This document shows, piece by piece, positions 6,909 through 63,808 of a stretch of DNA of 64,000 nt. A model generated the notes under the pieces. It did no database searches. It had not been told where the DNA came from and worked only from the letters and a program-made list of their open reading frames with translations. The DNA comes from a candidate division WOR-3 bacterium UBA6260. Its GTDB lineage: Bacteria > Hydrothermota > 32-111. The stretch is from the NCBI GenBank assembly GCA_002441125.1, contig DJVI01000015.1:69315-133314 (forward strand). The letters run 5' to 3'. Made by a program: the position numbers and the translations under genes. How positions within the stretch are numbered: position 1 is the first letter of the stretch; each line of letters begins with the position of its first letter.

Positions 6909-6917
6909 AATGCTCTC

Positions 6918-7346: not shown

Positions 7347-7355
7347 CCTTCCTCC

Positions 7356-7793: not shown

Positions 7794-7805
7794 TTTTTCT
7801 CCTGA

Positions 7806-8432: not shown

Positions 8433-8506
8433 GACATCCTCCTGGTTAATTTTAGTTTATCTTTTTAAGAAATAAATTATACTTTCTTAAAATATTTTGT
8501 CAATAA

Positions 8507-9243: not shown

Positions 9244-9253
9244 ATCTCCTCCA

Positions 9254-9931: not shown

Positions 9932-9939
9932 GCCTCCCT

Positions 9940-13768: not shown

Positions 13769-13771
13769 TCC

Positions 13772-14410: not shown

Positions 14411-14421
14411 TTTTCCTCCTA

Positions 14422-17191: not shown

Positions 17192-17865
17192 TTTCCTCCT
17201 CCAAGATATTTCCTTTCTATTCCAAGTATAATCTTTATAGATGTTGCTATAATACCAAGTTGGACACCTATAAGTATTCCTCTCTGAGCTGCCATATTCG
17301 GATATTTCAAGATCCATTCAACAACATCTGGAAGCCCTTTGTAAATGAATTCACCAAGTGGAACCCTTCCAAGAGTTACTATACCTGCTGTTACCAAAAG
17401 CAAAGTGGCATCAAAACTTCTCGCTCTGAAAGATCTGAAAGCTGCTGAAGCCATATAGAAAGCGAGTAGTGAAAAAATTGTGGATTGCATAGGCATCTGC
17501 ATGTAAAGGTATGTATACATCAAAGGTGTTGTATCGGTTGGTTTTACAGAAGGAAAAATCTTCATCCATAAAGTTGTTGGCATGAAAGCACCACCAAAAA
17601 CTCCAAGTAAAGCAGTCACAAACAAAGAAACAAGAACGATAATAGAATACTGCCACCCCTCAACCTTTCTTTTAATCTTAGTAAAATGTAGTTCAACTGT
17701 TGACTGAACAGCAATAAGGTAAGTGAATGCTGATACTATTATAAGCCAATCTAACATCAAGTTGTAAAAACTTTTTGATGCTGGATGTGGTACAAAAAAT
17801 TGCAAAATGAGTGCTATACCAAAGATCGCTGATACTAAAAGTGGTAATGTTCTTCTTAAAAACAT
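17188..17865 (-). CDS. module copy 2, gene B (paralog of 13772..14410)
   Basis: 225 aa, ~6 TM. Conserved QSTIFSLLAFYMASAAFRSFRARSFDATLLLVTAGIVTLGRVPLGE core. Confidence 0.6.
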   Translation of the reverse strand: MFLRRTLPLLVSAIFGIALILQFFVPHPASKSFYNLMLDWLIIVSAFTYLIAVQSTVELHFTKIKRKVEGWQYSIIVLVSLFVTALLGVFGGAFMPTTLWMKIFPSVKPTDTTPLMYTYLYMQMPMQSTIFSLLAFYMASAAFRSFRARSFDATLLLVTAGIVTLGRVPLGEFIYKGLPDVVEWILKYPNMAAQRGILIGVQLGIIATSIKIILGIERKYLGGGK

Positions 17866-17873
17866 ATTAACTC

Positions 17874-20208: not shown

Positions 20209-20219
20209 AATTCCTCCAT

Positions 20220-34345: not shown

Positions 34346-35422
34346 TTACTTCCCCTGTTTTTTTAATTCTTCATACTTCTTGTAAGCTTCCTGTGACTTA
34401 TCATTCATCTTCATCCTTGAGTAACAGTCAGCTTTTATAAGATAGAGATCACTTATCTCAATACCTGTTTTTGAAATATAATCATCTATAGTTTTTATGG
34501 CATCCGCAAAATCTTTGTTTTTATAATATGCGAAACCTAAATTCAACATAGATTCATAATCATCCTCTTTAAATTTCAAAGCATTTTTAAAGTTGGTTAT
34601 AGCCTCTTTATAATTCTTTTTTTCTTCAAGGTAAATCTTCCCTAATTTGAAAGAAACATCGTTTTTGTAAGTTGAGAGTTTTGCTTTCATCACTGAATCT
34701 GATGATTCGAATATCTTGTTGAAGTTTTCAAAATTTTTCAAAGCTTCTTCAAAATTCTTACTTGAGTATGCAATCTCGCCAAGCCAGTAAATTATCTGTG
34801 GATTTTCAGCATTGATAGCTTTTGCCTTATCGAGATACTTTTTCGCCTCATCGAACTTTTCTTCACCTATGTAATATTTTGCAACATTAAAAAATAGTGA
34901 AAGGTTCTCTGGATTCTTTGAAATAGATTTTTCTATAGTTTTTGTCATATTAGCTTCATCACCATTTTCCGCATAAAGAAGAACAAGGTAATCGTAATTT
35001 ATAGATGTATCCTTTATCTCTTCAGCCTTCAAAAGGTACTTTTCATATTTTGCTTTATTCTCTTTACCATCCTTGTTTCTCAAAAAACCTGTCCCGGCAT
35101 TGAAAAGAACAGGCCAGTAAAATTCAACATTTTCTCTCATTTCTTTCAAAACCTGTTTTGTTGTATCCTTTTCGAGTGCAATTAAAAAATATTCGGAAGC
35201 TTTGTCAAATTCACTTTTTGAACCGTAAGCTTTACCCATCCATAGATACGCTTGTGCGTTATTCGGTTCAAGTTTTATAGCTTCGTTGAACTGAACTATA
35301 GCTTTATCAAAATCGTTTTGCTGCATATATATTATACCTGATGACATATATTGATTGTTACATCCAACAAAAAGTATAATTATCATAGCAACGATTAAAA
35401 ACAAACTAACAAACTTATTCAT
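34346..35422 (-). CDS. TPR-repeat lipoprotein
   Basis: Lipobox LFVGC after signal peptide; multiple TPR units (AQAYLWMGKAY..., FNVAKYY...). Confidence 0.6.
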   Translation of the reverse strand: MNKFVSLFLIVAMIIILFVGCNNQYMSSGIIYMQQNDFDKAIVQFNEAIKLEPNNAQAYLWMGKAYGSKSEFDKASEYFLIALEKDTTKQVLKEMRENVEFYWPVLFNAGTGFLRNKDGKENKAKYEKYLLKAEEIKDTSINYDYLVLLYAENGDEANMTKTIEKSISKNPENLSLFFNVAKYYIGEEKFDEAKKYLDKAKAINAENPQIIYWLGEIAYSSKNFEEALKNFENFNKIFESSDSVMKAKLSTYKNDVSFKLGKIYLEEKKNYKEAITNFKNALKFKEDDYESMLNLGFAYYKNKDFADAIKTIDDYISKTGIEISDLYLIKADCYSRMKMNDKSQEAYKKYEELKKQGK

Positions 35423-35517
35423 TTAATACCTCCTGAAAAAAGAGCAGAATTTAGTGTTTTATTTTATCAAAAAAAAGTTTTTTGTCAATAGTAAGAACTG
35501 AAAGATTAATATAATGT

Positions 35518-35988
35518 TTATTTAAAAATATTATCTATTATATTATCAATCTCATCTTTAAATTCACTGTCAAATGTCATTTTCTCTTCACTCTCTTCCT
35601 TCATAAGTTTAATAATATTTTCACTTAACTTTTTTGTTAAAGTTTGAACAACTCCTATTATAGTATCTTTTGAAAAAAGTGAAACTATTATCAGATCATC
35701 ATTTATAGCAAAATAGAAAAAAGAGAACTTTTTCCCCTCTTGAAAAAGAGTAAAGAAATAATCCTCTTTAACAAGTTTGGCAATACTTTTAGTAGCGTTG
35801 TATATACCAGAGCACAGAGCACCCAAAGATTGGGTGAAATAGTTATCCTTTTTCATTCCTGTTTGAAAGAGAACCTGACCTGAAGTGTTAACGATAATTA
35901 CATTTAAAACTTTTGTGTCCTGTATAAAGATTTTCAACAACCGTTCAACATCCCTAACGGTTGGTTCATCAAGAACAAGTTTTTTCAT
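35518..35988 (-). CDS. roadblock/LC7 domain protein
   Basis: 156 aa. ...VLNVIIVNTSGQVLFQTG...LCSGIYNATKSIAKL...LIIVSLFSKDTIIGVV fits the roadblock/LC7 (MglB-like) pattern. Confidence 0.5.
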   Translation of the reverse strand: MKKLVLDEPTVRDVERLLKIFIQDTKVLNVIIVNTSGQVLFQTGMKKDNYFTQSLGALCSGIYNATKSIAKLVKEDYFFTLFQEGKKFSFFYFAINDDLIIVSLFSKDTIIGVVQTLTKKLSENIIKLMKEESEEKMTFDSEFKDEIDNIIDNIFK

Positions 35989-36000
35989 ATTTTTAATTTA

Positions 36001-36345
36001 TTATAGATTACCTTGCAACTGGTTTGAGATATTTTTAATCTGTATTATGAGAGCACCAATATTTACATTTTTTTCTGCAAGAGCAAAAAGTATAAATTTT
36101 TCTTTCGATATGAAAAGTATTTCACCCTTTTCAGTATAAATTGTTGAAAATATTGGAAGTGTATCAGTGCTTTTCCCTAAACTTTTTTCCATTTCACTGT
36201 TTATTTTTGCCACCATTGCACCCAAAAGATCAGCCATATCACTTTCATAGAATATCTTTTCAACTATAAGTCCATCTTTTGTTAAAACAGCCACACCTTT
36301 AACACCAACTATATCCATCAATTTTTCAATTTTTTCTTTTATCAT
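36001..36345 (-). CDS. roadblock/LC7 domain protein
   Basis: 114 aa. MDIVGVKGVAVLTKDGLIVEKIFYESDMADLLGAMVAKINSEMEKSLGK...GEILFISKEKFILFALAE is a strong roadblock pattern. Confidence 0.65.
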   Translation of the reverse strand: MIKEKIEKLMDIVGVKGVAVLTKDGLIVEKIFYESDMADLLGAMVAKINSEMEKSLGKSTDTLPIFSTIYTEKGEILFISKEKFILFALAEKNVNIGALIIQIKNISNQLQGNL

Positions 36346-37073
36346 TGTTCAAGCACCTGTTTTATGTTTTTTAACAACTGTTTGGCTTTTATAAGAATAA
36401 GTCCAATTTTTACAACCTCCTCTGTAAAAATACCAAGAATATATCCATTCCCTTTAAAAAGGTATATCCTCACTTTTCCTATTTCTATGAATATTCTATC
36501 TATAAGTCCAAGTTCAGTTTTACTTATAGAATCCTCTGATACTGAAAATATTGTTGAGAAAAGAGCAGATGTTATTTCAGGGTCAAGATTTTCAAGTATC
36601 TTCGCTCTTATAACAAGACCAGATTCTTCTATTATTATACTTCCCAAAACTCCGTTTATAGAATTTATCTCTTCAAGGGATCTATCAAGCAAATTTTCAG
36701 TTTCGTTGGCTGTAATAACATTATCTTTTTCAATTTTTTGAAACTCACCTTTTTGTTCAATATTTGATTCATTTTTTTTTACTTCAACTTTATTTGAAAT
36801 TTCTGAAACTACCGGTTCTGCCAGAGATTTCACCAAAGGATCATCTGGAAACTCTTTCAAAAGTTCATTCAAAATGTCAGTTGATGATGGATCGTTTAAC
36901 TCCTTTAACGATCTGTAAAGCAAAATTTTAGCATCCTTTATATCAGGGAACTCTGAAAGTATAAGTTTACAGTAGTTTATAGATTCGTTGAAAGCTTTGT
37001 TCTTAAAAAGATCCTCTGCTATCATTATTATTAATGACACACTATCCCTATCAACCTTCATCCCTTCATTCAA
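36342..37073 (-). CDS. TPR-like N-terminal domain fused to C-terminal roadblock/LC7 domain
   Basis: 243 aa. C-terminal INGVLGSIIIEESGLVIRAKILENLDPEITSALFSTIF...GKVRIYLFKGNGYILGIFTEE. 4-nt overlap with the downstream gene. Confidence 0.5.
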   Translation of the reverse strand: MNEGMKVDRDSVSLIIMIAEDLFKNKAFNESINYCKLILSEFPDIKDAKILLYRSLKELNDPSSTDILNELLKEFPDDPLVKSLAEPVVSEISNKVEVKKNESNIEQKGEFQKIEKDNVITANETENLLDRSLEEINSINGVLGSIIIEESGLVIRAKILENLDPEITSALFSTIFSVSEDSISKTELGLIDRIFIEIGKVRIYLFKGNGYILGIFTEEVVKIGLILIKAKQLLKNIKQVLEQ

Positions 37074-38181
37074 CTTTACCTCCTAAAAGTTCATCGAATG
37101 ATTTTTGACATTCTTTAAGAGATTCAATCAAGTTTTCAACTTTACTCATCTCGTCGGGTGTTTGAAGATTATCGTAAAGTGAAATCAATTCATCTATACT
37201 CTTTTTAATATCTCCCCTTTTAAAATATGCAAAAGAGTTATATTTTTTCATGAACTGATCATCAACTCCCTCATTTTTTGCAATCAGAGAATACTCGTTT
37301 ATCTTGTCAAACTGGTTTGTTGCAAAGAATGAATATATAATCATCCTGTAAGCTTCAACCTTTTTGGGATCCCTTTTTAGGTAATTTTTTAACTCGCTTA
37401 TAGCTTTATCGAAAAGCCCATCATCGAAATAATGTTTAGCTACATCAAAACTGTTCTCAACATCATCCTTCTTGTTTCCCTCAATAACAACTATCCCCAA
37501 TGTAATCATACCATATATCAGTTTTGCTATTTCAAACTCATCGCCATATTTTTCAGCTATATCCTTAATCGTGTTCTTTCCATTTATCATTGAAAATATT
37601 TCCCATTCTTTTGGTTTTAAATCGAGAAGATCCATCTTGTCTGGATTGTCTGAGATTTTTGGGACAACAGAAGAGTTTGGTATTTTTGCTGATAGTCTTG
37701 ACCATTCATCGATTCTTCTCGAACCTTCCATTATCAAAGATTCTGTTTTTATTTTAAATCTGAAAAGATTGTCAAGCACAAAATTACCTTCCTCAAATTT
37801 AAAATATCCTTCTCTCCACTCAAAAAGTTTGTAAATTGTATCCTCTATACGAAGCTGTAAAAATTTTCTAAACTCATTTTCACCCATTATGTTAATTTTT
37901 ATGATCTCTTTAGCTATCTCAACATCATCATTTTGAATTTTGTTGAGTATCCTTTCTTCATAAAACTCTTTCGTAATTTTTCCTGCTTTTATAAGGAGTA
38001 GTGGTAAGGTTTGTCCTTCGAGCCTAACAAAAACAACATTCCCATTTTCAAAATATACATTGGCTTTTTCATCTTTTGATGAATCGATTTTTAAAATACC
38101 ACTCTTCTGGTTAAAAGAGAGGATCTGAAAAAGATCTATAAGATTAAGTTCACTGATAGGTCCTTCTATAGCCAAAATCAC
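37066..38181 (-). CDS. DUF4388 N-terminal domain protein with C-terminal TPR-like repeats
   Basis: 371 aa. ISELNLIDLFQILSFNQKSGILKIDSSKDEKANVYFENGNVVFV is canonical DUF4388. C-terminal helical repeats (YFDDGLFDKAISELKNYLKRDPKKVEAYRMI). Confidence 0.6.
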   Translation of the reverse strand: MILAIEGPISELNLIDLFQILSFNQKSGILKIDSSKDEKANVYFENGNVVFVRLEGQTLPLLLIKAGKITKEFYEERILNKIQNDDVEIAKEIIKINIMGENEFRKFLQLRIEDTIYKLFEWREGYFKFEEGNFVLDNLFRFKIKTESLIMEGSRRIDEWSRLSAKIPNSSVVPKISDNPDKMDLLDLKPKEWEIFSMINGKNTIKDIAEKYGDEFEIAKLIYGMITLGIVVIEGNKKDDVENSFDVAKHYFDDGLFDKAISELKNYLKRDPKKVEAYRMIIYSFFATNQFDKINEYSLIAKNEGVDDQFMKKYNSFAYFKRGDIKKSIDELISLYDNLQTPDEMSKVENLIESLKECQKSFDELLGGKVE

Positions 38182-38183
38182 TC

Positions 38184-40892
38184 CTATTCAAAAATTGATA
38201 TCCAGTTTCTTGCAGCTTCAATCGCTTTTGCACTTTTTTGGGCAAATTCAGATTCTGGAGAATTTTTTAACACAGAGTTCCATCTCTCAATAGCCTCTTT
38301 TATATAACCTTCTTTTGCAATTATCTTAGCAAAGTTAAAATTAGCTTCAGGATTTGTAGGATCTAATTTTAAAGCGTTTTGATAAGCATCCTTTGCTACT
38401 TCAATATTTTCTATCTCTATACAAACTGAACCTATTCTTAAAAACGCTTTAAGGTTCGTTGGGTCTATCTGAACAATCCTTGTATATATCTGTATAGATT
38501 TTTCATAATCTTCAACTAATTCATACACGGTTGCAAGTTCCCAAAGATAGTTTAGATTATCAACATCTTTACTTATAAGTGATTCAAGAATTTTTATCGA
38601 ATCATCAAACATCTTCATTCTTCTCAAGACAAGAGCTTTTTTATAGAGAATATCAAGATTTTCACTATCCTTTTTCAGGATCCTTTCGTAGATTTCAAGT
38701 GCATCATTGTCCCTTCCCTGACTAACATAGATTTCAGACAGATTTGTAAGAGTTTCTACATTTTCAGGGTCCTTTAAAAGTATTTCTCCTATTATTTTTA
38801 TCGCTTCCTCAAGATTACCATCCTTCCATAAGAGCATAGAATAAAGGTTCAAAACATCTATCCTGTTTCTATCCCTTTCAACTATTTTTGAAATGTATTC
38901 TATAGGTTCAGAATAGATTCCTTTGTTGTAAAGTAACTTTGAAAGTTTCAAAACAACATTCTCATTCAAAGGAGATAAAGCGACAACTTTTCTGTAATAT
39001 TCTTCAGCCTCACCATATATCTCTTTTATGTTGTAAACATCACCTATTATTTCAAACATCTCAACATCATTTTCATCCTTCCTAACAACCTCGAAAGCGT
39101 TTTGTAAAGCCATGTCATATTCACCTTTTTGGAAGGATTCCTTAGCTTTCTTTCTCTTCTCTTCAAGTATATCAACCTCTTTTAACTTAACATCCTCTCT
39201 CTCAAAAGTATCATCCGTTTCCTCTTCAAAAACACCTGTAAAAATATCTGAACTTTTTTCTTCACCCATAGAAAAACCTTCAAGTTGTTCTGAAGATGTT
39301 ACCTGAACATCTTTTGATAAACTTCCACTTATCAGTACATCCACTTTATCAGCATAGTAATCAAGCCCGAGTTTATACCTCGTTTCAACATAGTAAGGGT
39401 TCAACCTTAAAGCTTCCTTGGTGTATTTCAAAGCATCCTCATACCTTCCAACCTTAGTTAGTGTGAAAGCTAAGTTATAGTAAGCTTCGGCGAAATTCTC
39501 ATCATATTGGATAGCTTTTTCAAAAACTTTTATAGCATCCTCATACTTCCCTTCCTCTCTATAAATTATTCCAAGATAGTTATAGGTTAAAGGATAATCT
39601 CCTTTTATTTCAAGAACTTTATCTATATATTTTTTTGCCTCAACAAAATTTTTATTTTCTATGAAAATTATTGATAGGTTCAAAAGTGCATCAACATAAT
39701 CATCCCTTATTTGAAGTGATTTGTTGAACATCTTTAAAGCTTCATCAGTCTTATTTTTATGAAGCATCGCTATACCGAGATTGTTGTAAGCCATAACATA
39801 GGTTGGATCAATTTTTATCGATCTGTTATAACATTCTATTGCATTATCTATATCACCTTTTTTATGGAAAGCTATACCCATATCGTTGTAAGCTTTTGCT
39901 GCAAATGATTCATCCTTGAAAGCGAGTTTGTACTCTTCTATAGCTTTATCGTTCTCACCCAAAAGTAGATATATTTCTCCTATCTGGATATGTATCAAAG
40001 CTCTATCAGGTTCTACAGCTTCAGCTTTTTTGAACTCTTTCAAAGCTTCGTTGAAAAGTCCTTTGTTTCTGAAACCTATTCCGAGTGTAAAGTAAGTTAA
40101 AAAACTATTTGGCTGAATTGAAACATTAGATTCTTCCTGAACAAAATTCTGATACATACCCTGTTGGTAAAAATCTATTCCAAGATTTGCCTGTGTTTTT
40201 CCATAAGCAGGGTTAAGTTTGATCGCCTTTTTAGTTTCCTTGATAGCATCATCAAAAAGCCCCTTCTCTCCATAAACAAAACCTAAAAGGAAATGTGCCT
40301 CTGCAAGATTCGGATCAAGTTCTAAAGCTTTTTGGAACTCTTTAATAGCTGAATCTAAGATTCCTTTATTATAATAAACCTCTCCAAGCATAGAATGTAT
40401 CTGTGCTGAATGGGGTTGTACCTTTAAAGATTTTCTGTACTCTTCTATAGAATCATCATACATACCTAACGATTTGTATATCTTTGCCAAATTCAATCTC
40501 GCATCGATAAAGGAAGGGTTAATCTTCAAAATCCTTTTGTATTCAGCTATAGCATCAAGTGATTTTCCCATATTGTTCAAAGCTTCAGCGAGTTTAAACC
40601 TTGTAGAAATATCCTCAGGGTCTTTTTCAAGTATATCTTTGTACTCTTTTATCTTCTCATCGTACATCCCTGTCTCTTTATAGATGAGTTCAAGGTTTTT
40701 CTTTGCAAGTGTGAATTTTGGATCTATAGCGAGAGCCTTTTCAAGTTCCTCTATCGCCTCATCGTACAAACCTTTGTTGTAATAAACAACAGCCAAATTG
40801 TTATGGGCACCAGCATCCTTTGGATCTATCCTTTGAGCAAAAGATTTTAAAACTTTCTTTTCAGCTTCTGAAATTTGAACCTGTTTTTTCAT
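38184..40892 (-). CDS. large TPR-repeat protein (902 aa)
   Basis: More than 20 tandem TPR units (AHNNLAVVYYNKGLYDEAIEELEKALAIDPKF... repeated throughout). No TM. Confidence 0.75.
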   Translation of the reverse strand: MKKQVQISEAEKKVLKSFAQRIDPKDAGAHNNLAVVYYNKGLYDEAIEELEKALAIDPKFTLAKKNLELIYKETGMYDEKIKEYKDILEKDPEDISTRFKLAEALNNMGKSLDAIAEYKRILKINPSFIDARLNLAKIYKSLGMYDDSIEEYRKSLKVQPHSAQIHSMLGEVYYNKGILDSAIKEFQKALELDPNLAEAHFLLGFVYGEKGLFDDAIKETKKAIKLNPAYGKTQANLGIDFYQQGMYQNFVQEESNVSIQPNSFLTYFTLGIGFRNKGLFNEALKEFKKAEAVEPDRALIHIQIGEIYLLLGENDKAIEEYKLAFKDESFAAKAYNDMGIAFHKKGDIDNAIECYNRSIKIDPTYVMAYNNLGIAMLHKNKTDEALKMFNKSLQIRDDYVDALLNLSIIFIENKNFVEAKKYIDKVLEIKGDYPLTYNYLGIIYREEGKYEDAIKVFEKAIQYDENFAEAYYNLAFTLTKVGRYEDALKYTKEALRLNPYYVETRYKLGLDYYADKVDVLISGSLSKDVQVTSSEQLEGFSMGEEKSSDIFTGVFEEETDDTFEREDVKLKEVDILEEKRKKAKESFQKGEYDMALQNAFEVVRKDENDVEMFEIIGDVYNIKEIYGEAEEYYRKVVALSPLNENVVLKLSKLLYNKGIYSEPIEYISKIVERDRNRIDVLNLYSMLLWKDGNLEEAIKIIGEILLKDPENVETLTNLSEIYVSQGRDNDALEIYERILKKDSENLDILYKKALVLRRMKMFDDSIKILESLISKDVDNLNYLWELATVYELVEDYEKSIQIYTRIVQIDPTNLKAFLRIGSVCIEIENIEVAKDAYQNALKLDPTNPEANFNFAKIIAKEGYIKEAIERWNSVLKNSPESEFAQKSAKAIEAARNWISIFE

Positions 40893-40897
40893 TCAAC

Positions 40898-41515
40898 CTA
40901 CCTGTTTAAAAAATCGAGAAGTTTTTTCAAAGAGATCGGATCAGGTAAAAGTATAAGATATCCTTTCAAAGGCTGTGGATCATCCTCAAAGGTGAATTCT
41001 GTCTCTACACAGAAAACCACATCCTTGTTAGAACTGAAATCTATATAAGCTGAAGTTATAACCGCTGATCCTATATCTATAACAAGATTTGGTACTGATG
41101 GGAGTATCAGCATGTTCAAAAAATCACTCATAGCTGTTAGGTATGAACTTATAACTATATTTGCAACCTCTTTGATAGCTGATTGCTCTATCTCACTTAA
41201 AATGGTTGTGGATCCAACAGTTTTTCCCATTACCATATCAACAAGAAGCATTGACTCATCTCTTGGGAATATGAGTAGAGTTCTACCTGTAAGATCACCA
41301 AGAAACTTAACAAGAACTCCGGTGACTATCTCATCCTGATTGTTTATTATTCTGTAAATCTCTTCAGAGGAGATTATGTGAACCTTTGGAACGGAAACCA
41401 TAACCCTCTTATTTACAAGTTGGGAGAGAACCGTTGCGGCATGTCCTCCTCCAATATTAGATATCTCTTTGATACCATCAAGATGAAAATCTTTTAAGTT
41501 GTTAAAATCAATCAT
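40898..41515 (-). CDS. cheC: CheC-family chemotaxis phosphatase
   Basis: 205 aa. Two CheC-type repeats (EISNIGGGHAATVLSQLVNKRV; EIEQSAIKEVANIVISSYLTAMS). Confidence 0.7.
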   Translation of the reverse strand: MIDFNNLKDFHLDGIKEISNIGGGHAATVLSQLVNKRVMVSVPKVHIISSEEIYRIINNQDEIVTGVLVKFLGDLTGRTLLIFPRDESMLLVDMVMGKTVGSTTILSEIEQSAIKEVANIVISSYLTAMSDFLNMLILPSVPNLVIDIGSAVITSAYIDFSSNKDVVFCVETEFTFEDDPQPLKGYLILLPDPISLKKLLDFLNR

Positions 41516-41518
41516 AAA

Positions 41519-43393
41519 TTACCCCTCTTTAGCCATCGATACAACTCCGGGAACATCAACTATGAAAGATGGCATTCCATTGTTTAATATTGATACACCT
41601 GCAAGCCCATGGATACCTGAAAGTATCCCTTTTAAAGGCTTTACAACTACCTCAGATTGTTCCATAAAACTATCAACAAGTATCCCATAGAAAGACTCAT
41701 CGACTTCAACAAGAACTATAGAATATTTTTCTCTCTCTCCAGTATTCTCACATTTGAAAATATTTGATAACCTAACAAGTGGTATAACCTCATCTCTCAA
41801 AACAAATACTTCTTTACCCATTATAGTGAAAATATCTTCCTTTTTAATATCTATTGTTTCAACTATATGTGATAGAGGAATTATATATGTCTCATCACTA
41901 ACCTTAACTATCAATGTTTTTATTATTGCAAGTGTAAGAGGTAGTTTTAAAGTGAATGTTGTTCCCTTGTTTTTCTGTGATGAGATTTCAAGTGTTCCTC
42001 CTATCTGTTTTAGAACATTATAAACCGCACCAACTCCAACACCTCTTCCAGATATATCGTTTACTTCCTCTTTAGTTGAGAAACCTTCACTCGTGATGAA
42101 AGAATAGATATCGTTTTCACTCAGATGTTGAACCTTTTCTTCATCTACCAAATTCAAAGATAAAGCTTTTTCAATTATTTTATTTTTATCCAACCCTTTG
42201 CCATCATCTGAAACAATAATCAATACACCGTTTTTAACTCTCTTAGCTTCGAGAATAATATTACCTGTCTCATCCTTTTTGTTTTTCAACCTTTCTTCCG
42301 GGCTTTCTATACCATGATCAACAGCATTCTTTAAAAGATGCAACAAAGGATCAGCCAAAGAATTCAGAATAGCCCTATCAAGTTCAATATCCTTTCCCTT
42401 TATTATAAAGTTTATCTTTTTTTTCAATCTATTTGAAAGATCCCTGATATATCTTGGATACCTGTCAAAAACCTGTCCAACAGGGACCATCCTTATTTTC
42501 ATTATCTCATCCTGAATGTTTGAAATGATCTTTGATGTTGAATTCAATGAATTTATCAACTCTTCGTTCTGTAAAGAGTAAGCTATCTGTTGTAACCTTC
42601 CTCTCGCTATTACAAGTTCGGAAGCATAATTTTGAAGGTTATCCAACCTTTCAAGTGAAACTTTTATATCCTTTTTTTCGATAACCGTTTCCTGTTCGTT
42701 TTTAATCTCCTCTTTTAAAACAAAAGCATCTTTTATTTCTGGAATCCCTTTTATCTCTTCTATTATACTGTTTATCTGGGGTGTATCTTTGATGAAGATC
42801 TTTATCTCATCTTTAAAGTTCTCCTTCATTATGGAATCAAAATCTGGATCACTTTTTATGTAAAGTTTTTTATCCTGTAAATTTTTAATCACCACAAACG
42901 CTCGTGCAGATTTTAATACAACATCGTCAGCAAAAATAATTTTAATAACCTTTTCTGAAAGTGAAATCCTTTCAGGTTCTTTTTTCTCTTTCCTTTCCTC
43001 AACTATATTCTTTTCCTTAATAGTTTCAGAACCTGTTTTTATAGATTCTATCACCTTTAAAAAACTTTTTATTATGTTCTCATCTATCTGACTTTTATGA
43101 ACTAAAGATTGAATGTAGTCTGTTCCCTTTAAAAGTAGATCTACAAGTTCAGAACTGACCTGTAATTTTTCGCTCCTTATAAGATCCATAACATCTTCTA
43201 TTGAGTGAGAAATTTTTGTTATAGAAGAATAGCCCATCGAAGCTGCCATGCCTTTTATAGTATGCATACCTCTAAAAATGGAATTTATAGCCTCGATGTC
43301 GTTCATATCCTTTTCAAGTTTCAAGATGGAATCTGAAACTTGTTCGAGGTATTCCTCAGCTTCACTTATGAACAATTCTTCATAGTTTGTCAT
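41519..43393 (-). CDS. cheA: chemotaxis histidine kinase CheA
   Basis: 624 aa. P1 Hpt (MHTIKGMAASMG), P3/P4 HATPase (HLLKNAVDHGIE...GRGVGVGAV), P5 CheW-like C-terminus. Confidence 0.9.
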   Translation of the reverse strand: MTNYEELFISEAEEYLEQVSDSILKLEKDMNDIEAINSIFRGMHTIKGMAASMGYSSITKISHSIEDVMDLIRSEKLQVSSELVDLLLKGTDYIQSLVHKSQIDENIIKSFLKVIESIKTGSETIKEKNIVEERKEKKEPERISLSEKVIKIIFADDVVLKSARAFVVIKNLQDKKLYIKSDPDFDSIMKENFKDEIKIFIKDTPQINSIIEEIKGIPEIKDAFVLKEEIKNEQETVIEKKDIKVSLERLDNLQNYASELVIARGRLQQIAYSLQNEELINSLNSTSKIISNIQDEIMKIRMVPVGQVFDRYPRYIRDLSNRLKKKINFIIKGKDIELDRAILNSLADPLLHLLKNAVDHGIESPEERLKNKKDETGNIILEAKRVKNGVLIIVSDDGKGLDKNKIIEKALSLNLVDEEKVQHLSENDIYSFITSEGFSTKEEVNDISGRGVGVGAVYNVLKQIGGTLEISSQKNKGTTFTLKLPLTLAIIKTLIVKVSDETYIIPLSHIVETIDIKKEDIFTIMGKEVFVLRDEVIPLVRLSNIFKCENTGEREKYSIVLVEVDESFYGILVDSFMEQSEVVVKPLKGILSGIHGLAGVSILNNGMPSFIVDVPGVVSMAKEG

Positions 43394-43396
43394 ATT

Positions 43397-43765
43397 CTAT
43401 TTCAAATTTAACACTCTGTTAACAGATTCAAGAACTCTTGATGGTTGGAAAGGTTTTACTACAAAATCTTTAGCACCAGCCTGTATAGCTTCGACAACAA
43501 GTGATTGTTGCCCCATAGCTGAAACCATAAGAATTTTTGCGTTTGGAAACTCTTTGATGATTTCTCTTACAGCATCGATTCCAGACATATCTGGCATTAT
43601 GATGTCCATAGTAACAAGATCAGGCTGCAATTCTCTATACATCTGAACAGCCTGTGATCCTGTACCAGCCTCTCCACAGATTTCGAACCCCTCTTTCTTC
43701 AAAATATCTGCGATCATCCTTCTCATAAAAATCGCGTCATCAACGATTAGCACCCTTGTAGACAT
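43397..43765 (-). CDS. cheY: chemotaxis response regulator CheY
   Basis: 122 aa receiver; RVLIVDDAIFMRRMI, phospho-Asp context LVTMDIIMPDMSG, K at +~50. Confidence 0.9.
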   Translation of the reverse strand: MSTRVLIVDDAIFMRRMIADILKKEGFEICGEAGTGSQAVQMYRELQPDLVTMDIIMPDMSGIDAVREIIKEFPNAKILMVSAMGQQSLVVEAIQAGAKDFVVKPFQPSRVLESVNRVLNLK

Positions 43766-43776
43766 ATTTTTTCCTC

Positions 43777-44175
43777 CTAATTTTTATTGATGATATTTTT
43801 CAAATTTAATATTATAATCTCTTTACCATCTTTTTCAACAAATCCTTTTATATACTCACCTTCACTTTCTTCCTCTTTAACTTTGGTAACATTTATTATA
43901 CCCTCTATATTATCAACAAGAAGTCCATATTTTTCTTTATCCTTTTCACAAATAATTATATAATTTTCTTCAACCTTTTTGTTTATCTTCAACTTTTTCT
44001 TCAAAGAGATCAAAACTACAACATCTCCTCTTAAATTTATAACACTCTCTATATAATCTTGGGCATTTGGAATCCTTATCCCATTCATTTTTTCATATAT
44101 ATCTATGATATCCGATATGTTTATCCCGTATATCTTTCCTTCAATTTTAAAAGTTATATACTGTTCATTTGCCAT
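43777..44175 (-). CDS. cheW: chemotaxis coupling protein CheW
   Basis: Start moved to MANEQYITFKIEG (ATG at 44175) behind an AGGAG RBS. The track ORF extends to 44217 and overlaps the MCP gene. Confidence 0.8.
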   Translation of the reverse strand: MANEQYITFKIEGKIYGINISDIIDIYEKMNGIRIPNAQDYIESVINLRGDVVVLISLKKKLKINKKVEENYIIICEKDKEKYGLLVDNIEGIINVTKVKEEESEGEYIKGFVEKDGKEIIILNLKNIINKN

Positions 44176-47100
44176 TTTCTTCAATCTCCTTCCAAGTGTA
44201 TTCGATAGGCAAAGCACTTAAAGGATGTGCATAGAAGCCATGTACTTTTTCACTGATAGCGATCTGTTTATAGTTATGAGTTAAAAATACCCAGGGAGCA
44301 TCATCTACTATAATTTTTTCAATATCCTGATAAAGTTTGTTTCTCTCTTCAAAGTTTGTAGTCATTCTCGCTTTCAAAATAAGATTATCAACCTCTCTGT
44401 TTGAATAGAATGAGTTGTTACCACCATCTCCAAAACTCTCACTATGGAAAAGTGGATAAAGGAAATTGTCTGGTTCACCTGTATCACCAGCCCATCCCAT
44501 CATAAAAAGATCACATTTACCAGAATGCATCCTATCTAAAAGTTCAACCCACTTCAAAGGTACTATTTTTATTTTTATACCTATCTGTTGCCACATATCC
44601 TGTAAGAGTTCAGCCCTCTTCAAAACCCTTTCAGAATTTGAACATATCATCTCAAAATGGTGTTTTATACCGTCAGAAAAACCTGCCTTTATCATAAGTT
44701 CTTTTGCTTTTGATATGTTATAAGGATAACCTTCTTGCGATTTATTGTAACATTGGAGTGATGGTGGAAAAACTCCCTTGGAGATTATACCGAGCCCGAA
44801 CATAGTTTCGTTTATATACCTCGATTTATCTGTAGCATAGTTTATCGCTTTTCTGACTTCTTTTGTAAGTGTGATCTCGTTTTTCCTTGAAAAGTTGAAG
44901 CCAACATATTGGACATCCAAGGAAGGAATAGTTAAAACTTTTATATCCAATCTGTTCAATTTTTTTAGTTTTTCAAGGTCCTCAGCGTTGACTGAACAAT
45001 AATCAATATTTTTTGAAAGTAGTTCCTCAAATTCATCCTCTTCCCTTTTAATTTTAATTTCAACATTCTCTACAAAAGGTTCACCACCAAAATAATGTTT
45101 GTTTGATTCCATTAAAATTCTTTCGTCATCAACATATTTCATAACGAAAGGTCCACAACCTATACAGTTATTTTTCATCTTCTCATCTGAAAATTTAACC
45201 ATATCCTTTTTAATTATGGAAAGAGATATAACAGCAAGGTTTGAAAGGAAAGGAATATATGGATAATCTAAAACGAACTTAACGGTATGGTCATCTATAA
45301 CCTCTATACCTTCAACATCCCTTGCTCTCCTCTTTATATAGTTCTGTGCTCCTTTTATCATGTTAACGAAAGAAGAGTTTGGAGTCAAAAGGACATTTTT
45401 AAAACTCTCTTTTACATCCTCTGCTGTAACTGGAGTGCCATCATGGAAATAAGCGTTCTCCCTTAAGAAAAAAATCCATTCTGTTGCATCTGAGTTTATA
45501 TGCCAATATTTTGCAAGTGCTGGAACAACATTGGTATCCTTTCCGAATTTTACAAGACCTGAATGTATCTGTTGTAAAATTGTGTTACTCGTAGAATCAC
45601 CAACAAGTGCAGGATGCCAATGAACAGGAAGATTGTTCATTATAAACTTGAATCTGTTCTTCTCTGGATTCCTTTTAATTATAAATTTTTGTGAAATAGT
45701 ATCCTGTATACCTCTTAACATCTTCAAAGAATCATCACTTTTTAAAATATCGTTTTTAAAAATCTTGTTTAGTTCTTCAGCCATCTGGTTTATTTTTTCA
45801 GATTTCGCTATTATATTTTTGTAAAGTTTTACTATATCATCCTTTAATTTTTCCTGCTGGGTGATAGAGTCGTATATCTCTTTTAAAAGATTTTTAAAAT
45901 TCTCAGCTGAATCTTTTACATCGTTCACAACTTTACTACTCGTTTCTATTGAAAAGATTATCTTTTTAGCAGAATCGAGTTCTTTATCGACAATATTCAA
46001 AACATCCAAAAGAAGATTTTCCATATTCTTCACTATATTTTTTATCTCCAAAGAAGCGTCTGTGGCTTTTTTGATCAATTCCTTTGTTTGTGAAACTATA
46101 ACCGCAAGATTCTGTTGATATTTGCCAGATCTTGCAGCCTCAATCGAAGCATAAAGTGAAAGCAGCCTTGTCTGTTCTGACAATTCTTTCAACTCAATAC
46201 TGGTTTCAAAGATGAGTTTCAAATTTATCGATATATCGTTGAAATCATCTTTAAGGTTTAAAATCATATTGAGAGTTTTCTCTATTTCACTTTTAACATT
46301 GATAATACTTGTTGAGAACTCGTTAACAGCCCCAAGTAGCAGATTCAGATTATCCTCTATCTCACCAACATTTTTGATCATAAGTTGTTCGCTCTCTTCT
46401 ATAGATTCTATAGCTTGGAAATAGTTCTTAACAACTTTTGATTGTTCCTCATTCCTCTCGATAAAATCCCTTATAACACTCATGGTCTGATCTATGATAT
46501 TCTTACTGTTTTCAAGAGTTATCTCTATCTTTTTGAACATCTTCAACTCTGTAGATATTGAATTATCTATAGATTTTTTTCCGTATATAAGATCGGAAAG
46601 AGGATCAAGTTGTTGCATCAGATTCGACAATCCTATTTTAACATCAGATTGTGTTTTAACCATAGTGAGAAGTTTCTCTGTCGATTGTAATGAAACATCT
46701 ACTATATTTTGGACACTCCTGTTAAGATCGTTTATGAGATTTTTGTTTTTATCCTGAATGTTTATATACTCTTTCATCCTATCAGATTTGGATACAATAT
46801 CTAAAAGGTTCATCTGAACATTTTTCAACCTGAAACTCAAAAGATCTATATTTCTTTTTAAAGTGTCTATTTTGTATGAAACATTATCAACTGATTCAAC
46901 AACTTTTTCAGTTTTCACTTTTATATTTTCTATACTTTCAGGAATCCTTTTTGGTAGGTTGAATGTTTTATTTGCGAGAAGAAGCATCCTGTCAGCTATA
47001 ACCTCAAATCCCTTTCCACTCTCTCCAGCATGGTAAGATTTAATACCAGCGTTCCTTGCAGCTGATTCTGTCATCTGCGCTATTCCAATTATGATTTCAG

Positions 47101-47518
47101 TTATCTGTCCTATATGTTTTGAATAATCGTTGAAAGGTTTCACAATATCGAGTATCTTAGAAGAACCACTCGTAAATATGTTCAACTGGTTTATAACCTG
47201 ATCGAATTCTGTAACACTATTTTTAATACTTTCTGTAGAATTTTTCGAATAATCTATTAAAACATCCGCTGCCTCTGAAACTATCTGTATTGATGCATAG
47301 AGTTTATTCCCTCTATCCTCAATTTTTTCTATCTCTTCTATAAGCCCTTTCTCTTCAACTGAAATTGAGGATAGTATAGAATGGGCATTCCTGTTTATCT
47401 CAAGGAGTTCATCATCTTCTATTTTTATTGTTTTCAAAGCATAGACAAAAGCTGTAGGATCAAACTCCTCTTCTTGGACAACTCCCTTTCTTTTTAAAAA
47501 ATTAAAGAAAGAAACCAT
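44165..47518 (-). CDS. soluble chimeric chemoreceptor: MCP-signal-like coiled-coil N-terminal half fused to C-terminal family-5 solute-binding-protein domain
   Basis: 1117 aa, no TM or signal peptide. MCP core-like segments SAARNAGIKSYHAGESGKGFEVIADRMLLLANKT and LLSLYASIEAARSGKYQQNLAVIVSQTKELIKKA. Last ~500 aa SBP_bac_5-like (VHWHPALVGDSTSNTILQQIHSGLVKFGKDTNVVPALAKYWHINSDATEWIFFLRENAYFHDGTPVTAEDV...). Confidence 0.75.
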   Translation of the reverse strand: MVSFFNFLKRKGVVQEEEFDPTAFVYALKTIKIEDDELLEINRNAHSILSSISVEEKGLIEEIEKIEDRGNKLYASIQIVSEAADVLIDYSKNSTESIKNSVTEFDQVINQLNIFTSGSSKILDIVKPFNDYSKHIGQITEIIIGIAQMTESAARNAGIKSYHAGESGKGFEVIADRMLLLANKTFNLPKRIPESIENIKVKTEKVVESVDNVSYKIDTLKRNIDLLSFRLKNVQMNLLDIVSKSDRMKEYINIQDKNKNLINDLNRSVQNIVDVSLQSTEKLLTMVKTQSDVKIGLSNLMQQLDPLSDLIYGKKSIDNSISTELKMFKKIEITLENSKNIIDQTMSVIRDFIERNEEQSKVVKNYFQAIESIEESEQLMIKNVGEIEDNLNLLLGAVNEFSTSIINVKSEIEKTLNMILNLKDDFNDISINLKLIFETSIELKELSEQTRLLSLYASIEAARSGKYQQNLAVIVSQTKELIKKATDASLEIKNIVKNMENLLLDVLNIVDKELDSAKKIIFSIETSSKVVNDVKDSAENFKNLLKEIYDSITQQEKLKDDIVKLYKNIIAKSEKINQMAEELNKIFKNDILKSDDSLKMLRGIQDTISQKFIIKRNPEKNRFKFIMNNLPVHWHPALVGDSTSNTILQQIHSGLVKFGKDTNVVPALAKYWHINSDATEWIFFLRENAYFHDGTPVTAEDVKESFKNVLLTPNSSFVNMIKGAQNYIKRRARDVEGIEVIDDHTVKFVLDYPYIPFLSNLAVISLSIIKKDMVKFSDEKMKNNCIGCGPFVMKYVDDERILMESNKHYFGGEPFVENVEIKIKREEDEFEELLSKNIDYCSVNAEDLEKLKKLNRLDIKVLTIPSLDVQYVGFNFSRKNEITLTKEVRKAINYATDKSRYINETMFGLGIISKGVFPPSLQCYNKSQEGYPYNISKAKELMIKAGFSDGIKHHFEMICSNSERVLKRAELLQDMWQQIGIKIKIVPLKWVELLDRMHSGKCDLFMMGWAGDTGEPDNFLYPLFHSESFGDGGNNSFYSNREVDNLILKARMTTNFEERNKLYQDIEKIIVDDAPWVFLTHNYKQIAISEKVHGFYAHPLSALPIEYTWKEIEENGK

Positions 47519-47585
47519 TTTAAGTCCTTTTTAAAAATAAAATATATCATAATAATAAAAATAAATCAATATGTGATATGGGGAA

Positions 47586-61198: not shown

Positions 61199-62347
61199 AT
61201 GAGAGAAGATAAAGGGAATATTTTTTACACACGATTCAACTATGACAAACTTTTCTGGCTAATAAATATAAGAACAATAATTTTGATAAGTTTGGCAGTT
61301 ATTTTCTTTTTTCTAAATATTTTTGGAATAAAAATAAATAACACCTTTTCACCAAAATATCTTCTATTTTGGCAATTAATTTCTATACTTATCAATCTTT
61401 TGCTTTTTTTTGATTTAAAATATCTTCAAAAAAATAAACACCTTATGATGAATGAGGAAAATTTCAAGTATTTAGGGATGATACAGATAGATTTTGACAT
61501 ACTTTATACGATTGTAACCATTTTTCTTTCAGGTGGAATAAAATCTCCCCTCCTTTTCCTTTTCGTTTACAACATAATAACATCCAACTTTTTGATTCAG
61601 GATAGAAATACCCTTTTTTACACTTTAATTCTTCTAATTCTTTTATTCGTATCTGAATTTAGATTCACCTTTAAGGAAACTTTTCCTTATATAGAGTATA
61701 GAACACTTGAAAAGTTTGAAAACATGATCCTTATATTTGTGATATACTTTTTTCTATTCTATCTTTCAAAATATGTTTCAGAAAAGCTGAATCAAAAACA
61801 GGAAGAGTTGAACCGCCTTTATCAGGAAACTTACAAACTTTCAATCACGGATAGGTTAACTGGACTTTACGATCAAACCTATTTTAGAGTTAGTGCAAAG
61901 GATGCTATAGATATTGCAAAAACTAACAACAACAAAATCGCAATAGTAATGTTCGATATAGATAATTTTAAAGAGTTCAACGATACAAATGGTCACCTTA
62001 TGGGATCGAGAGCTTTGGTTCAGATAGCACAGATAATGAAACAAACTTTCAGAAAAACTGATATATTGGGGAAATATGGTGGAGATGAATTCATTCTACT
62101 TTTAAAGGATATAGATGAAAACTATATAACTTTTGTCCTTGAGAGGTTTAAAAGTAAGATTGAAAATTTCAATTTCAACCCTGAGACATCAAAAGTCTCC
62201 CATTTAACAATTTCAATAGGAGTTTCATTTTTCCCTAAAGATGGGGATAACCTTGAAACACTTATAGATAAATCTGATAAGGCTTTATATACAGCCAAGA
62301 ATTTAGGGAAAAATAATCTATTCGTTTTTGAGGATAGCAAAAAGTAG
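61199..62347 (+). CDS. membrane-anchored diguanylate cyclase (multi-TM N-terminus + GGDEF)
   Basis: 382 aa, ~5-6 TM, then RLTGLYDQTYF...GGDEF (YGGDEFILLL) with I-site-like RKTD. Confidence 0.85.
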   Translation: MREDKGNIFYTRFNYDKLFWLINIRTIILISLAVIFFFLNIFGIKINNTFSPKYLLFWQLISILINLLLFFDLKYLQKNKHLMMNEENFKYLGMIQIDFDILYTIVTIFLSGGIKSPLLFLFVYNIITSNFLIQDRNTLFYTLILLILLFVSEFRFTFKETFPYIEYRTLEKFENMILIFVIYFFLFYLSKYVSEKLNQKQEELNRLYQETYKLSITDRLTGLYDQTYFRVSAKDAIDIAKTNNNKIAIVMFDIDNFKEFNDTNGHLMGSRALVQIAQIMKQTFRKTDILGKYGGDEFILLLKDIDENYITFVLERFKSKIENFNFNPETSKVSHLTISIGVSFFPKDGDNLETLIDKSDKALYTAKNLGKNNLFVFEDSKK

Positions 62348-63808
62348 TTTTACTATATCAGGATCGTATAGTTTACCTGAGTTATCGTTGAAAATCCCTT
62401 CAATATGTTTATCAGTCAATTTAAAAATATCTCTGAAAACACAATATTCTCCTGCAACTCTAACTATCCTTGCACCTACAGGTATCTTTTTTCCAACCAA
62501 TCTGTTGAAGCCTGTTCCATCATAATTCTCATAAAGGTATTTTATTATTTTTTGGGCATCCTCAAGCATAACAAGAGGTGCTATAATATCTGCTCCAGAA
62601 ACTATGGCTTGCTTGATCTCAACAGATTTTTCTGGATCAAAATATGTTGGGGCATTGAATATCTCTTTAGGTTTATTTAAAAGCCCTAAAAGGTGTAACA
62701 AAGCGGAGTACTGGACATCCTTTATCTCATCTTCTGAGAGTTCCATCCTTTTAGCTATTTTGACAGAAAGAGCTGAAACCTTTTCACTATGTTTCTTTAA
62801 ACCGGGGAATATCCTTTTCTCAAGATACAAAAATGCGATAAGTGATTCAAGATAACTTCTCCTTGAATCCTCAAAAAATTTTGCTGAAGCCAAAGAATTG
62901 GTAATTACCAATCTCGCAATTTCAAAAAGAACCATCTTCTCATCCTTGACTTTTGAAGACTCTATATCAAAAATAAAAATACCGATTATGAGTTTACCTA
63001 TAAATATTGGGAGTGTAACAGTTGAGTTCTCATTTCCTCCTTTCAAAGAGTATCCTATATTTATTTTTGAAGATTTAAAATAATCTGTGAACTGACTTTT
63101 ATGTATCTTTGTTCCAACTGGAAACTCTTTTTCAAAGTTTCTCTCTTTTTTTACAACAAAATCTCCACTCTTTTCATCAAAGAGTAAAAGTACTATTGAA
63201 TGGGGATTAAAAATCGTATCAAGCTTTTCAAATATGTTCAAAGAATTTGAATCAAAAGATTTTATAACAGAGATCATCTCTGAAAAGGTTTTTAGTTCAT
63301 CTATACTCTTCAGTAGTTCTTTAAGATAGTTATCAAGTTTCTCCTTCTGCTCTGTTACAAGTTGGTTTGTGTTTAAAAGTTCTTCGTTCATCTTTTGGAT
63401 ATCTGCACTCAACTTTTCTTTATCAAGTAAGAGTTGCCTTTTCTCGTATGCGTTTCTTACAACCAAAAGCATGGTATCCGCAGTGAAAGGTTTCGAAACA
63501 AAATCGTAAGCTCCACTCCTTATACATGTCATTGCAAGGTTTATGTCTATAGTTGCTGATATAACTATTATTGGTGAAAATGGATTTTCCATAGAATAGT
63601 TGGAGATGAAATCAAAAACATCTATTCCCGGTAATGACAGATCAACTATTATTAATGAGTACTGGTTTAAGGACAAAAGATTTTTAAATTGTCCTCCATC
63701 GGTAGATATATCAACATCTACACTATCTTTCTTTTCATACTCAATTATTTTTTTTAAAAAATTTGCTACGGTGATTTCACCGTCAGCAACAAGGATCTTT
63801 TCTTTCAT
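62318..63808 (-). CDS. response regulator: receiver + central GAF-like region + degenerate HD-GYP-like output domain
   Basis: 496 aa. REC (ILVADGEITV..., D in LIIVDLSLPGID, K in FVSKP). C-terminus ...HSEKVSALSVKIAKRM...YSALLHLLGLL...YENYDGTGF has the outline of HD-GYP, but the H-D dyad and GYP motif are altered (HLLG instead of HDIGK; YDGTGF instead of HHE.DGSGYP). Confidence 0.55.
   Translation of the reverse strand: MKEKILVADGEITVANFLKKIIEYEKKDSVDVDISTDGGQFKNLLSLNQYSLIIVDLSLPGIDVFDFISNYSMENPFSPIIVISATIDINLAMTCIRSGAYDFVSKPFTADTMLLVVRNAYEKRQLLLDKEKLSADIQKMNEELLNTNQLVTEQKEKLDNYLKELLKSIDELKTFSEMISVIKSFDSNSLNIFEKLDTIFNPHSIVLLLFDEKSGDFVVKKERNFEKEFPVGTKIHKSQFTDYFKSSKINIGYSLKGGNENSTVTLPIFIGKLIIGIFIFDIESSKVKDEKMVLFEIARLVITNSLASAKFFEDSRRSYLESLIAFLYLEKRIFPGLKKHSEKVSALSVKIAKRMELSEDEIKDVQYSALLHLLGLLNKPKEIFNAPTYFDPEKSVEIKQAIVSGADIIAPLVMLEDAQKIIKYLYENYDGTGFNRLVGKKIPVGARIVRVAGEYCVFRDIFKLTDKHIEGIFNDNSGKLYDPDIVKLLFAILKNE

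Follow-up and report, generated by a model that had tools for sequence, protein, structure and literature searches.

A 64 000-nucleotide stretch of contig DJVI01000015.1 from candidate division WOR-3 bacterium UBA6260 (here called the window) encodes a soluble chemoreceptor of 1117 residues, in which two full-length methyl-accepting chemotaxis protein (MCP) signalling hairpins are followed by a family-5 solute-binding protein (SBP) domain. The gene is the first of a chemotaxis (che) operon, with genes for CheW, CheY, CheA and CheC directly downstream on the same strand, and the whole architecture is kept in a family of 51 distinct sequences. Architecture, conservation and operon are solid. That one chain packs as a pseudo-dimer, that it responds to a peptide-like ligand and that its output is non-flagellar are reasoned hypotheses. 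Taking these together, we lean, if only slightly, towards a dedicated cytoplasmic pseudo-dimer receptor that would sense its ligand through the SBP domain and signal to PATAN and Roadblock proteins. In the part of the literature reached by term searches, we found no MCP–SBP_bac_5 fusion with a duplicated, asymmetrically diverged signalling domain; within that part the conserved design of double hairpin plus SBP appears to be previously undescribed.

Architecture and conservation of the receptor

The receptor gene starts at an ATG at 47518 and forms a single open frame of 1117 codons on the reverse complement (window G+C ∼ 32%); the plus-strand translation of 44165-47518 is riddled with stops. 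Two stretches of the protein match Pfam MCPsignal (PF00015), which scores 98.6 bits where the gathering score is 34.6, and the MCP models of NCBIfam match residues 74-275 and 425-603. The two MCP core motifs lie at residues 153-176 and 451-477, 300 residues apart. SBP_bac_5 matches the C-terminal part with 279 bits (E 7e-83) over profile positions 1-366 of 368. No transmembrane (TM) helix was found in the receptor: the best Kyte–Doolittle window of 19 residues reaches 1.35 and is located inside the SBP fold. The N-terminus (MVSFFNFLKRKGVVQEEEF) does not resemble a signal peptide and there is no lipobox anywhere in the protein. The original prediction, made from the letters of this stretch, had described a protein lacking TM helix and signal peptide, with two MCP-core-like segments about 300 residues apart and a C-terminal family-5 SBP. 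The hydropathy scan, the inspection of the N-terminus, the profile matches, the motifs and a fold match to DppA, GbpA and OppA bear this out. Its suggestion of a duplicated signalling domain is likewise supported, by two full-length hairpins of ∼ 290 residues that find each other in BLASTP (E 1e-11). It had missed the strand, the operon, the DosM-type precedent and the complementary degeneracy of the tips, all described below.

The ORF (open reading frame) could in principle be an assembly or frameshift fusion of an MCP gene with a secreted SBP gene, or could encode an exported protein with a periplasmic SBP. We consider either very improbable. No support for them was found; close homologues are labelled 'ABC transporter substrate-binding protein' in the databases, a label that is misleading for this family. 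No hidden frameshift or stop splits the ORF, and the uninterrupted frame recurs with an identical junction in 51 independent sequences from many assemblies and phyla-level lineages. The SBP begins directly after helix 4, and the protein has none of the signals that export would need. We therefore rejected the artefact on the grounds that the architecture is kept across the 51 sequences, and export or membrane anchoring on the grounds of the hydropathy scan. Judged by its sequence, the receptor is a genuine gene whose architecture is kept down to 22% identity.

The family was assembled from several searches. A word-indexed search returned 18 proteins of 805-1128 residues with both Pfam domains, down to 25% identity, one of them annotated as candidate division WOR-3; counted as protein clusters, 19 show the architecture uninterrupted. 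The same kind of search with the N-terminal 630 residues missed close homologues and contributed little. A HMMER scan with query residues 1-630, exhaustive over 1.8 billion cluster representatives, gave ∼ 15 further clusters at 50% identity (1048-1137 residues), colinear over both hairpins, whose sequences all end in the same SBP. A species-level genome scan found full-length copies in ∼ 24 metagenome-assembled genomes (MAGs), labelled WOR-3, TA06, Stahlbacteria, Edwardsbacteria, UBP2 or just 'bacterium', the closest being in a TA06 MAG (92% identity). After de-duplication, 51 distinct sequences at 22-92% identity remained, all with the whole architecture.

A simpler form occurs in Bacillota (P0018; Firmicutes bacterium UBA4882, L030 9755-14152), where one fully canonical MCP hairpin is joined to the same SBP_bac_5 domain in 805-817 residues. 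This single-hairpin form may represent the ancestral homodimeric architecture, and its existence suggests an evolutionary route from a homodimeric MCP–SBP to the duplicated form. In the same locus, a 615-residue second ORF after the P0018 gene also matches the receptor query.

Structure prediction with AlphaFold2 (AF2) from an 18-sequence alignment gave a full-length model with a predicted local distance difference test (pLDDT) score of 83.6 and a predicted template-modelling (pTM) score of 0.65. It consists of a cap helix (22-31), four long helices, a ten-residue linker and a two-lobe alpha/beta domain (622-1117). The long helices span 129-148 residues; helices 2, 3 and 4 have 148, 147 and 144. 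The helical N-terminal part modelled alone reached pLDDT 84.1 and pTM 0.60. In this model, a hairpin-sized stretch superposes on chain A of 2CH7, the cytoplasmic domain of the T. maritima receptor Tm1143 (44H), with a TM-score of 0.76 and a root-mean-square deviation (rmsd) of 5.0 Å over 309 columns at 18% identity; the superposition covers one such stretch and does not distinguish hairpin 1 from hairpin 2. Only 2CH7 and 3ZX6 were usable among the Foldseek matches of the helical model, the top matches, to SMC arms, being meaningless (rmsd > 60 Å). Each hairpin is ∼ 290-295 residues long, ∼ 42 heptads by length. The cap helix, which is conserved among closer homologues and weakly across all 51 sequences, is predicted to sit at the bundle end nearest the sensor. 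Pro and Gly occur in the connector between the hairpins, where both AF2 models place a non-helical turn of 3-4 residues, at 313/314-316. The connector is the least conserved and most gapped segment of the coiled coil in the 51 sequences, varying in both sequence and length.

Signalling tips and solute-binding domain

The two tips were scored against 142 canonical MCP tips drawn from the HMMER matches. Tip 1 (family consensus ARNAGIKAYHAGE-GRGFEVIA) has a canonical turn and C-helix (E-x-G-R/K-G-F-x-V-I-A), keeping 8.3 of 14 conserved C-side positions. Its N-helix is non-canonical yet at least 90% conserved within the family; the immediate N-side reads ARNAGIKAYHAG. Tip 2 (family consensus LLSLYASIEAAR-G.....L-VIV-Q) has a near-canonical N-helix, with the immediate N-side LLSLYASIEAARAG, while the G-R-G-F turn and the C-helix signature are degenerate and only 2.9 of 14 C-side positions are kept. 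As far as the alignments tell, tips 1 and 2 are thus degenerate in a complementary manner. The methylation consensus [ASTG][ASTG]xx[EQ][EQ]xx[ASTG][ASTG] does not occur in the receptor, even in a relaxed form. It is absent from 50 of the 51 family members, compared with 2-7 sites in each of eight DosM-like control proteins. A Pfam scan found neither CheR nor CheB in the receptor operon. Because of these two observations, methylation-based adaptation is probably absent in the receptor clade.

By sequence, the SBP domain is closest to GbpA/HbpA (3M8U, 5e-65) and E. coli DppA (1DPP, 7e-59). Its model superposes on DppA, GbpA, OppA, MppA and NikA with TM-scores of 0.82-0.85 normalized to the target (Foldseek). 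The best NCBIfam SBP models are those of DppA, Opp4A, GsiB and NikA, all matching far below their equivalog cut-offs. The DppA strand M-M-G-W-T-G-D408 aligns with M-M-G-W-A-G-D1012 of the receptor. In DppA, Asp408 makes a critical salt bridge to the N-terminal amine of the bound dipeptide (PMC3295651); the corresponding D1012 does not vary among the 18 aligned sequences and, as the majority residue, occurs in at least 90% of the 51 sequences. In the deepest divergences the SBP part is 31-38% identical, as against 10-24% for the coiled coil, which argues that the SBP is under strong selection. As ligand we propose a peptide or a peptide-like metabolite with a free alpha-amine.

A signal peptide or a lipobox stands at the start of the nearest stand-alone relatives of the domain (28-33% identity). 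The Pfam scan of 50 window ORFs, which covered all but a few short ones, detected no gene for an ABC transporter component. Since the SBP is internal and has no export signal, its stand-alone relatives do carry such signals and no ABC genes turned up in the scan, intracellular sensing by a normally periplasmic domain, as had been proposed from the sequence, is a sound inference.

Operon context and proposed output

Features of the receptor gene and of the genes downstream of it are collected in the table. As called mechanically, the CheW ORF starts at a GTG at 44217 and overlaps the receptor gene by 53 nt. From the ATG at 44175 it encodes 132 residues, the same size as in 88%-identical WOR-3 loci, and overlaps the last 11 nt of the receptor gene, which suggests that CheW is translationally coupled to the receptor. 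The order of the operon is kept in 11 related loci (L003-L010, L017, L020, L021) at 27-92% receptor identity. The block of 10-11 genes between 34346 and 44217 on the minus strand is kept in related MAGs down to 27% receptor identity.

Table. Elements of the receptor gene and of the operon that it opens, in window coordinates
Feature	Coordinates	Strand	Residues	Details	Basis
Chemoreceptor, double MCP hairpin + SBP_bac_5, soluble	44165..47518	minus	1117 aa	whole ORF; stop codon 44165-44167	translation, Pfam, hydropathy
Ribosome-binding site	47525..47529	minus		AAGGA, 7-11 nt 5' of ATG	
N-terminal cap helix	47420..47461	minus	20-33	DPTAFVYALKTIKI	alignments, AF2
Signalling hairpin 1	46583..47416	minus	35-312	helices 35-163, 165-312	Pfam MCPsignal 91-275; AF2
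Tip 1	46991..47062	minus	153-176	AARNAGIKSYHAGESGKGFEVIAD	alignments, tip scoring
Connector between hairpins	46571..46612	minus	303-316	QLDPLSDLIYGKKS	AF2, alignment
Signalling hairpin 2	45686..46570	minus	317-611	helices 317-463, 468-611	NCBIfam MCP 425-603; AF2
Tip 2	46088..46168	minus	451-477	RLLSLYASIEAARSGKYQQNLAVIVSQ	alignments, tip scoring
Short linker	45656..45685	minus	612-621	helix 4 to first SBP strand	AF2, alignment
SBP_bac_5 domain	44168..45655	minus	622-1117	DppA/GbpA-like Venus-flytrap fold, no export signal	Pfam, NCBIfam, structure matches
GWAGD motif	44483..44497	minus	1008-1012		alignments; PMC3295651
CheW, single domain	43777..44175	minus		likely start ATG 44175 with GGAGA ribosome-binding site	Pfam
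CheY-like single-domain response regulator	43397..43765	minus			Pfam
CheA	41519..43393	minus		Hpt-P2-dimerization-HATPase-CheW-like P5	Pfam
CheC/CheX-type CheY-P phosphatase	40898..41515	minus			Pfam
TPR protein	38184..40892	minus	902 aa	kept in operon	Pfam, related loci
PATAN (DUF4388/PatA_N) domain protein	37066..38181	minus			Pfam, related loci
Three consecutive Roadblock/LC7 (MglB-like) proteins	35518..37073	minus		36342-37073, 36001-36345, 35518-35988	Pfam, related loci
TPR protein	34346..35422	minus	358 aa	ends cluster in close relatives	Pfam, related loci

From its composition, the block seems to connect the che genes with a polarity or GTPase-type module. In Synechocystis, the type IV pilus motor is a binding partner of PATAN response regulators (bioRxiv 10.1101/2021.06.11.447907); genes for PATAN proteins are also found beside mglA and mglB, and MglB belongs to the Roadblock proteins (PMC4316618). 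An MglA-like GTPase gene is absent from the 34346-44217 block itself. In the locus of a distant family member, P0015 (L001/L002 1-9800), the genes that diverge from that of the receptor encode a PilT-like T2SSE ATPase, an Arf/MglA-like small GTPase, a DnaA-like AAA protein, a PATAN-TPR protein and CheR-CheD-CheB. Methylation enzymes may thus exist in some lineages although the receptor lacks consensus sites. Because of the PATAN and Roadblock neighbours and of the genes at the P0015 locus, we suggest that the pathway may steer a polarity or pilus-type module and not a flagellar switch; this is the weakest step of our interpretation.

A second MCP is encoded in the P0013 locus (L003 22118-23246), after the Roadblock genes and at the place where the window has a TPR protein. 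It has 570 residues and an ordinary single MCPsignal domain. The pathway may therefore accept additional receptors in some lineages.

Hairpin packing, related systems and other window features

We find it somewhat probable that the two hairpins fold back side by side, such that one chain would form a four-helix bundle with one SBP (a pseudo-dimer). This packing is favoured by the connector, which is short, variable and contains Pro and Gly, whereas it is the mid-junction that is conserved in DosM-like proteins. It is also favoured by the lengths of helices 2, 3 and 4, which are equal within four residues, and by the pTM of 0.60, which exceeds what one well-placed hairpin would give (2CH7 accounts for a TM-score of 0.40 of the query). 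Finally, the two canonical elements, the C-helix in hairpin 1 and the N-helix in hairpin 2, are joined by the connector; packed side by side they would be neighbours and give one canonical face, opposite a face made of the divergent N-helix in hairpin 1 and the variable C-helix in hairpin 2. Single-chain receptors of this kind have precedents in a study of Tsr (PMC4692393): its engineered single-chain constructs signal, and it also notes natural soluble single-chain MCP domains of unknown function and explains why the two subunits of a normal receptor dimer sit in different environments.

The alternative is a homodimer like DosM (V. cholerae VC1403), an F9-class receptor, with the hairpins end to end in a rod of ∼ 40 nm and a signalling tip at each end. 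Such a rod would bridge the two CheA/CheW baseplates of a cytoplasmic sandwich array, and the two SBPs of the dimer, in the mid-plane, would add sensory input to an otherwise structural receptor. DosM does share much with the receptor. It is soluble, has no TM helix and carries two tandem complete hairpins with helices of similar length; its extended rod has been seen by electron cryotomography (PMC7534058; PMC9321776). Residues 1-630 are colinear over both hairpins with eight DosM-like proteins of 631-667 residues from the HMMER scan, the start of helix 1 and the end of helix 4 would also meet in mid-rod, and the rod is compatible with the AF2 monomer models. However, the similarity to these proteins (E ∼ 1e-15 to 1e-12, 19-23% identity) is no better than that to generic single-hairpin MCPs, and an independent duplication is therefore possible. 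All eight have two fully canonical tips, and DosM-like proteins have several methylation sites, a conserved mid-junction and, as an F9 hallmark, a triple-domain CheW (CheW3). The receptor family instead has complementary degenerate tips, no methylation consensus, a junction that is the least conserved part of the coiled coil, a C-terminal SBP of ∼ 500 residues and a single-domain CheW of 132-146 residues. According to the study from which the definition of the F9 class is taken, 98% of DosM homologues have no sensor domain (PMC9321776). In a rod the tips would be homodimeric, and neither would present a fully canonical face. We regard the rod as rather unlikely. Membership of the DosM/F9 class was rejected because a sensor domain is present, the CheW has a single domain and the tips are non-canonical. 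Across the family, tip-to-tip distances (284-323 residues) and distances from tip 2 to the SBP (162-174 residues) are based on anchors too noisy to separate the two topologies.

The pseudo-dimer leads to the following model. The receptor would be the dedicated cytoplasmic receptor of the Che pathway of its operon. Its hairpins would fold back through the turn at 313-316, so that one chain builds the bundle that ordinary receptors make from two subunits, with a single SBP carried on helix 4 next to the N-terminal cap. One canonical face (C-helix of tip 1 and N-helix of tip 2) and one specialized face would serve trimer formation and the docking of CheW and CheA-P5; the N-helix of tip 1 has become family-specific and the C-helix of tip 2 would be free to vary. 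In Tsr structures, a functional face of the bundle reportedly combines the N-helix from one subunit with the C-helix from its partner. A cytoplasmic ligand with a free alpha-amino group, most likely an imported di- or oligopeptide or a peptide-like metabolite, would close the flytrap, shift helix 4 relative to the cap and the connector and thereby alter the activity of CheA. The target of CheY-P, with CheC as the resetting phosphatase, would be a PATAN/Roadblock (MglB-like) polarity or type-IV-pilus module. A bolder version, which we offer tentatively and hold to be somewhat less probable than its negation, is that of a natural single-chain, intrinsically asymmetric receptor whose tips split the trimer-axis and CheA/CheW jobs, with a single covalently attached SBP that would drive the bundle from the cytoplasmic side and a methylation-independent PATAN/MglB output.

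Several points weigh against this interpretation. The four-helix-bundle packing was deduced from pTM, helix lengths and the short turn and not from model coordinates, and monomer predictions are biased to intramolecular packing. Single-chain Tsr constructs swap subunits (PMC4692393), and DosM, the sole experimentally studied double-domain receptor, has the form of an extended rod that bears one tip on either end (PMC7534058). The Bacillota relative, with its single hairpin and canonical tip, indicates that two SBPs per bundle are tolerated; we dropped a steric argument for one SBP per bundle in a hexagonal array because this single-hairpin, hence homodimeric, MCP–SBP exists. Distant family members are encoded near CheR, CheD and CheB, so methylation could still take place at non-consensus sites. 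Concerning the ligand, the DppA equivalog NF043070 matches with 220.9 bits against a cut-off of 1005, and no assignment finer than that given above is possible. The equivalent of DppA Arg355, the clamp for the C-terminal carboxylate, is Asn here and variable in the family, which makes a simple dipeptide gripped at its two ends an improbable ligand. Concerning the output, the Pfam scan of 50 window ORFs revealed no gene for a pilus, MglA or a flagellum, which makes its assignment one of guilt by association.

The poor conservation of the carboxylate clamp, together with the lack of an assignable ligand, would also fit an SBP recruited as a scaffold, with a vestigial pocket, for contacts with the TPR, PATAN or Roadblock proteins, for oligomerization or for localization; the large TPR proteins in the operon suggest protein-protein assemblies. 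Against this, the complete two-lobe fold is retained (nearly the full profile length, TM-score ∼ 0.84), the SBP evolves more slowly than the coiled coil, and the amine-binding Asp and the adjacent GW..D strand are essentially invariant in the 51 sequences. We therefore consider a pure scaffold improbable and retain a ligand-binding SBP.

Parts of the design have counterparts in known systems. H. pylori TlpD is a cytoplasmic receptor with a C-terminal zinc-binding domain, and such receptors with a C-terminal ligand-binding domain reportedly form a class. Like them, the receptor has no membrane anchor, carries its sensor after the signalling domain and presumably responds to an intracellular cue. 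Unlike TlpD-type receptors, it has a 55-kDa two-lobe Venus-flytrap SBP in place of a small helical domain, and its signalling domain is duplicated. E. coli DppA mediates peptide taxis by docking on the periplasmic domain of Tap; here as there (and as in MBP–Tar and RBP/GBP–Trg) an SBP provides the specificity, in the case of DppA one of the same family 5 type with the amine-binding Asp conserved. DppA, however, works as a free protein of the periplasm: it binds a transmembrane receptor non-covalently and serves an ABC transporter as well, whereas the receptor SBP is covalently fused and cytoplasmic, with no transporter genes among the scanned window ORFs. SgrR-type proteins (helix-turn-helix plus SBP_bac_5) already use a family-5 SBP as a sensor module in the cytoplasm, and the NCBIfam SgrR model weakly matches receptor residues 646-827 (E 5e-9); their output is a DNA-binding helix-turn-helix N-terminal to the SBP, as opposed to the chemoreceptor coiled coil seen here. 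Engineered Tsr∼Tsr (Mowery et al. 2015, PMC4692393) shows that two subunits in one polypeptide assemble and signal. Its subunits are identical and prone to swapping, whereas the receptor halves have diverged, such that a division of labour would be possible if they pair intramolecularly.

Ordinary receptors are symmetric homodimers; within the array, one of the two subunits is turned to the trimer axis, and its partner is in contact with CheA and CheW. This asymmetry is hard to dissect because engineered single-chain receptors swap subunits. If the pseudo-dimer is correct, its naturally diverged halves would be a ready-made tool for assigning roles to the helices, and the one-to-one covalent coupling of a hinge-bending sensor to a bundle would offer a simple system for signal entry without membrane or HAMP domain. 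The family further points to a sensing of imported peptides, or of a related metabolite, that is linked to metabolism in the uncultured WOR-3, TA06 and Edwardsbacteria lineages; it also suggests that the coupling of a Che pathway to PATAN/Roadblock polarity proteins is conserved.

Elsewhere in the window, a second minus-strand cluster (6291-22013) encodes TonB_C, ExbB and two ExbD proteins, a DUF4388/PATAN protein (10691-11584), DUF6754 proteins (14422-15741 and 17874-19097), a PF13941 'MutL' actin-like ATPase (20220-22013) and several ORFs to which Pfam gave no match; a role as a further motility or envelope machine is possible. A GGDEF diguanylate cyclase with a PilS-like sensor of six TM helices (61199-62347, plus strand) is convergent with a response regulator carrying an HD_5 (HD-GYP-like) domain (62318-63808, minus strand), and the two form a possible make-and-break pair for cyclic di-GMP. 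Every 2-kb bin has a negative GC skew (cumulative -6.2) and the minus strand carries almost all window genes, which indicates that the window lies within one replichore and has a strong gene-strand bias.

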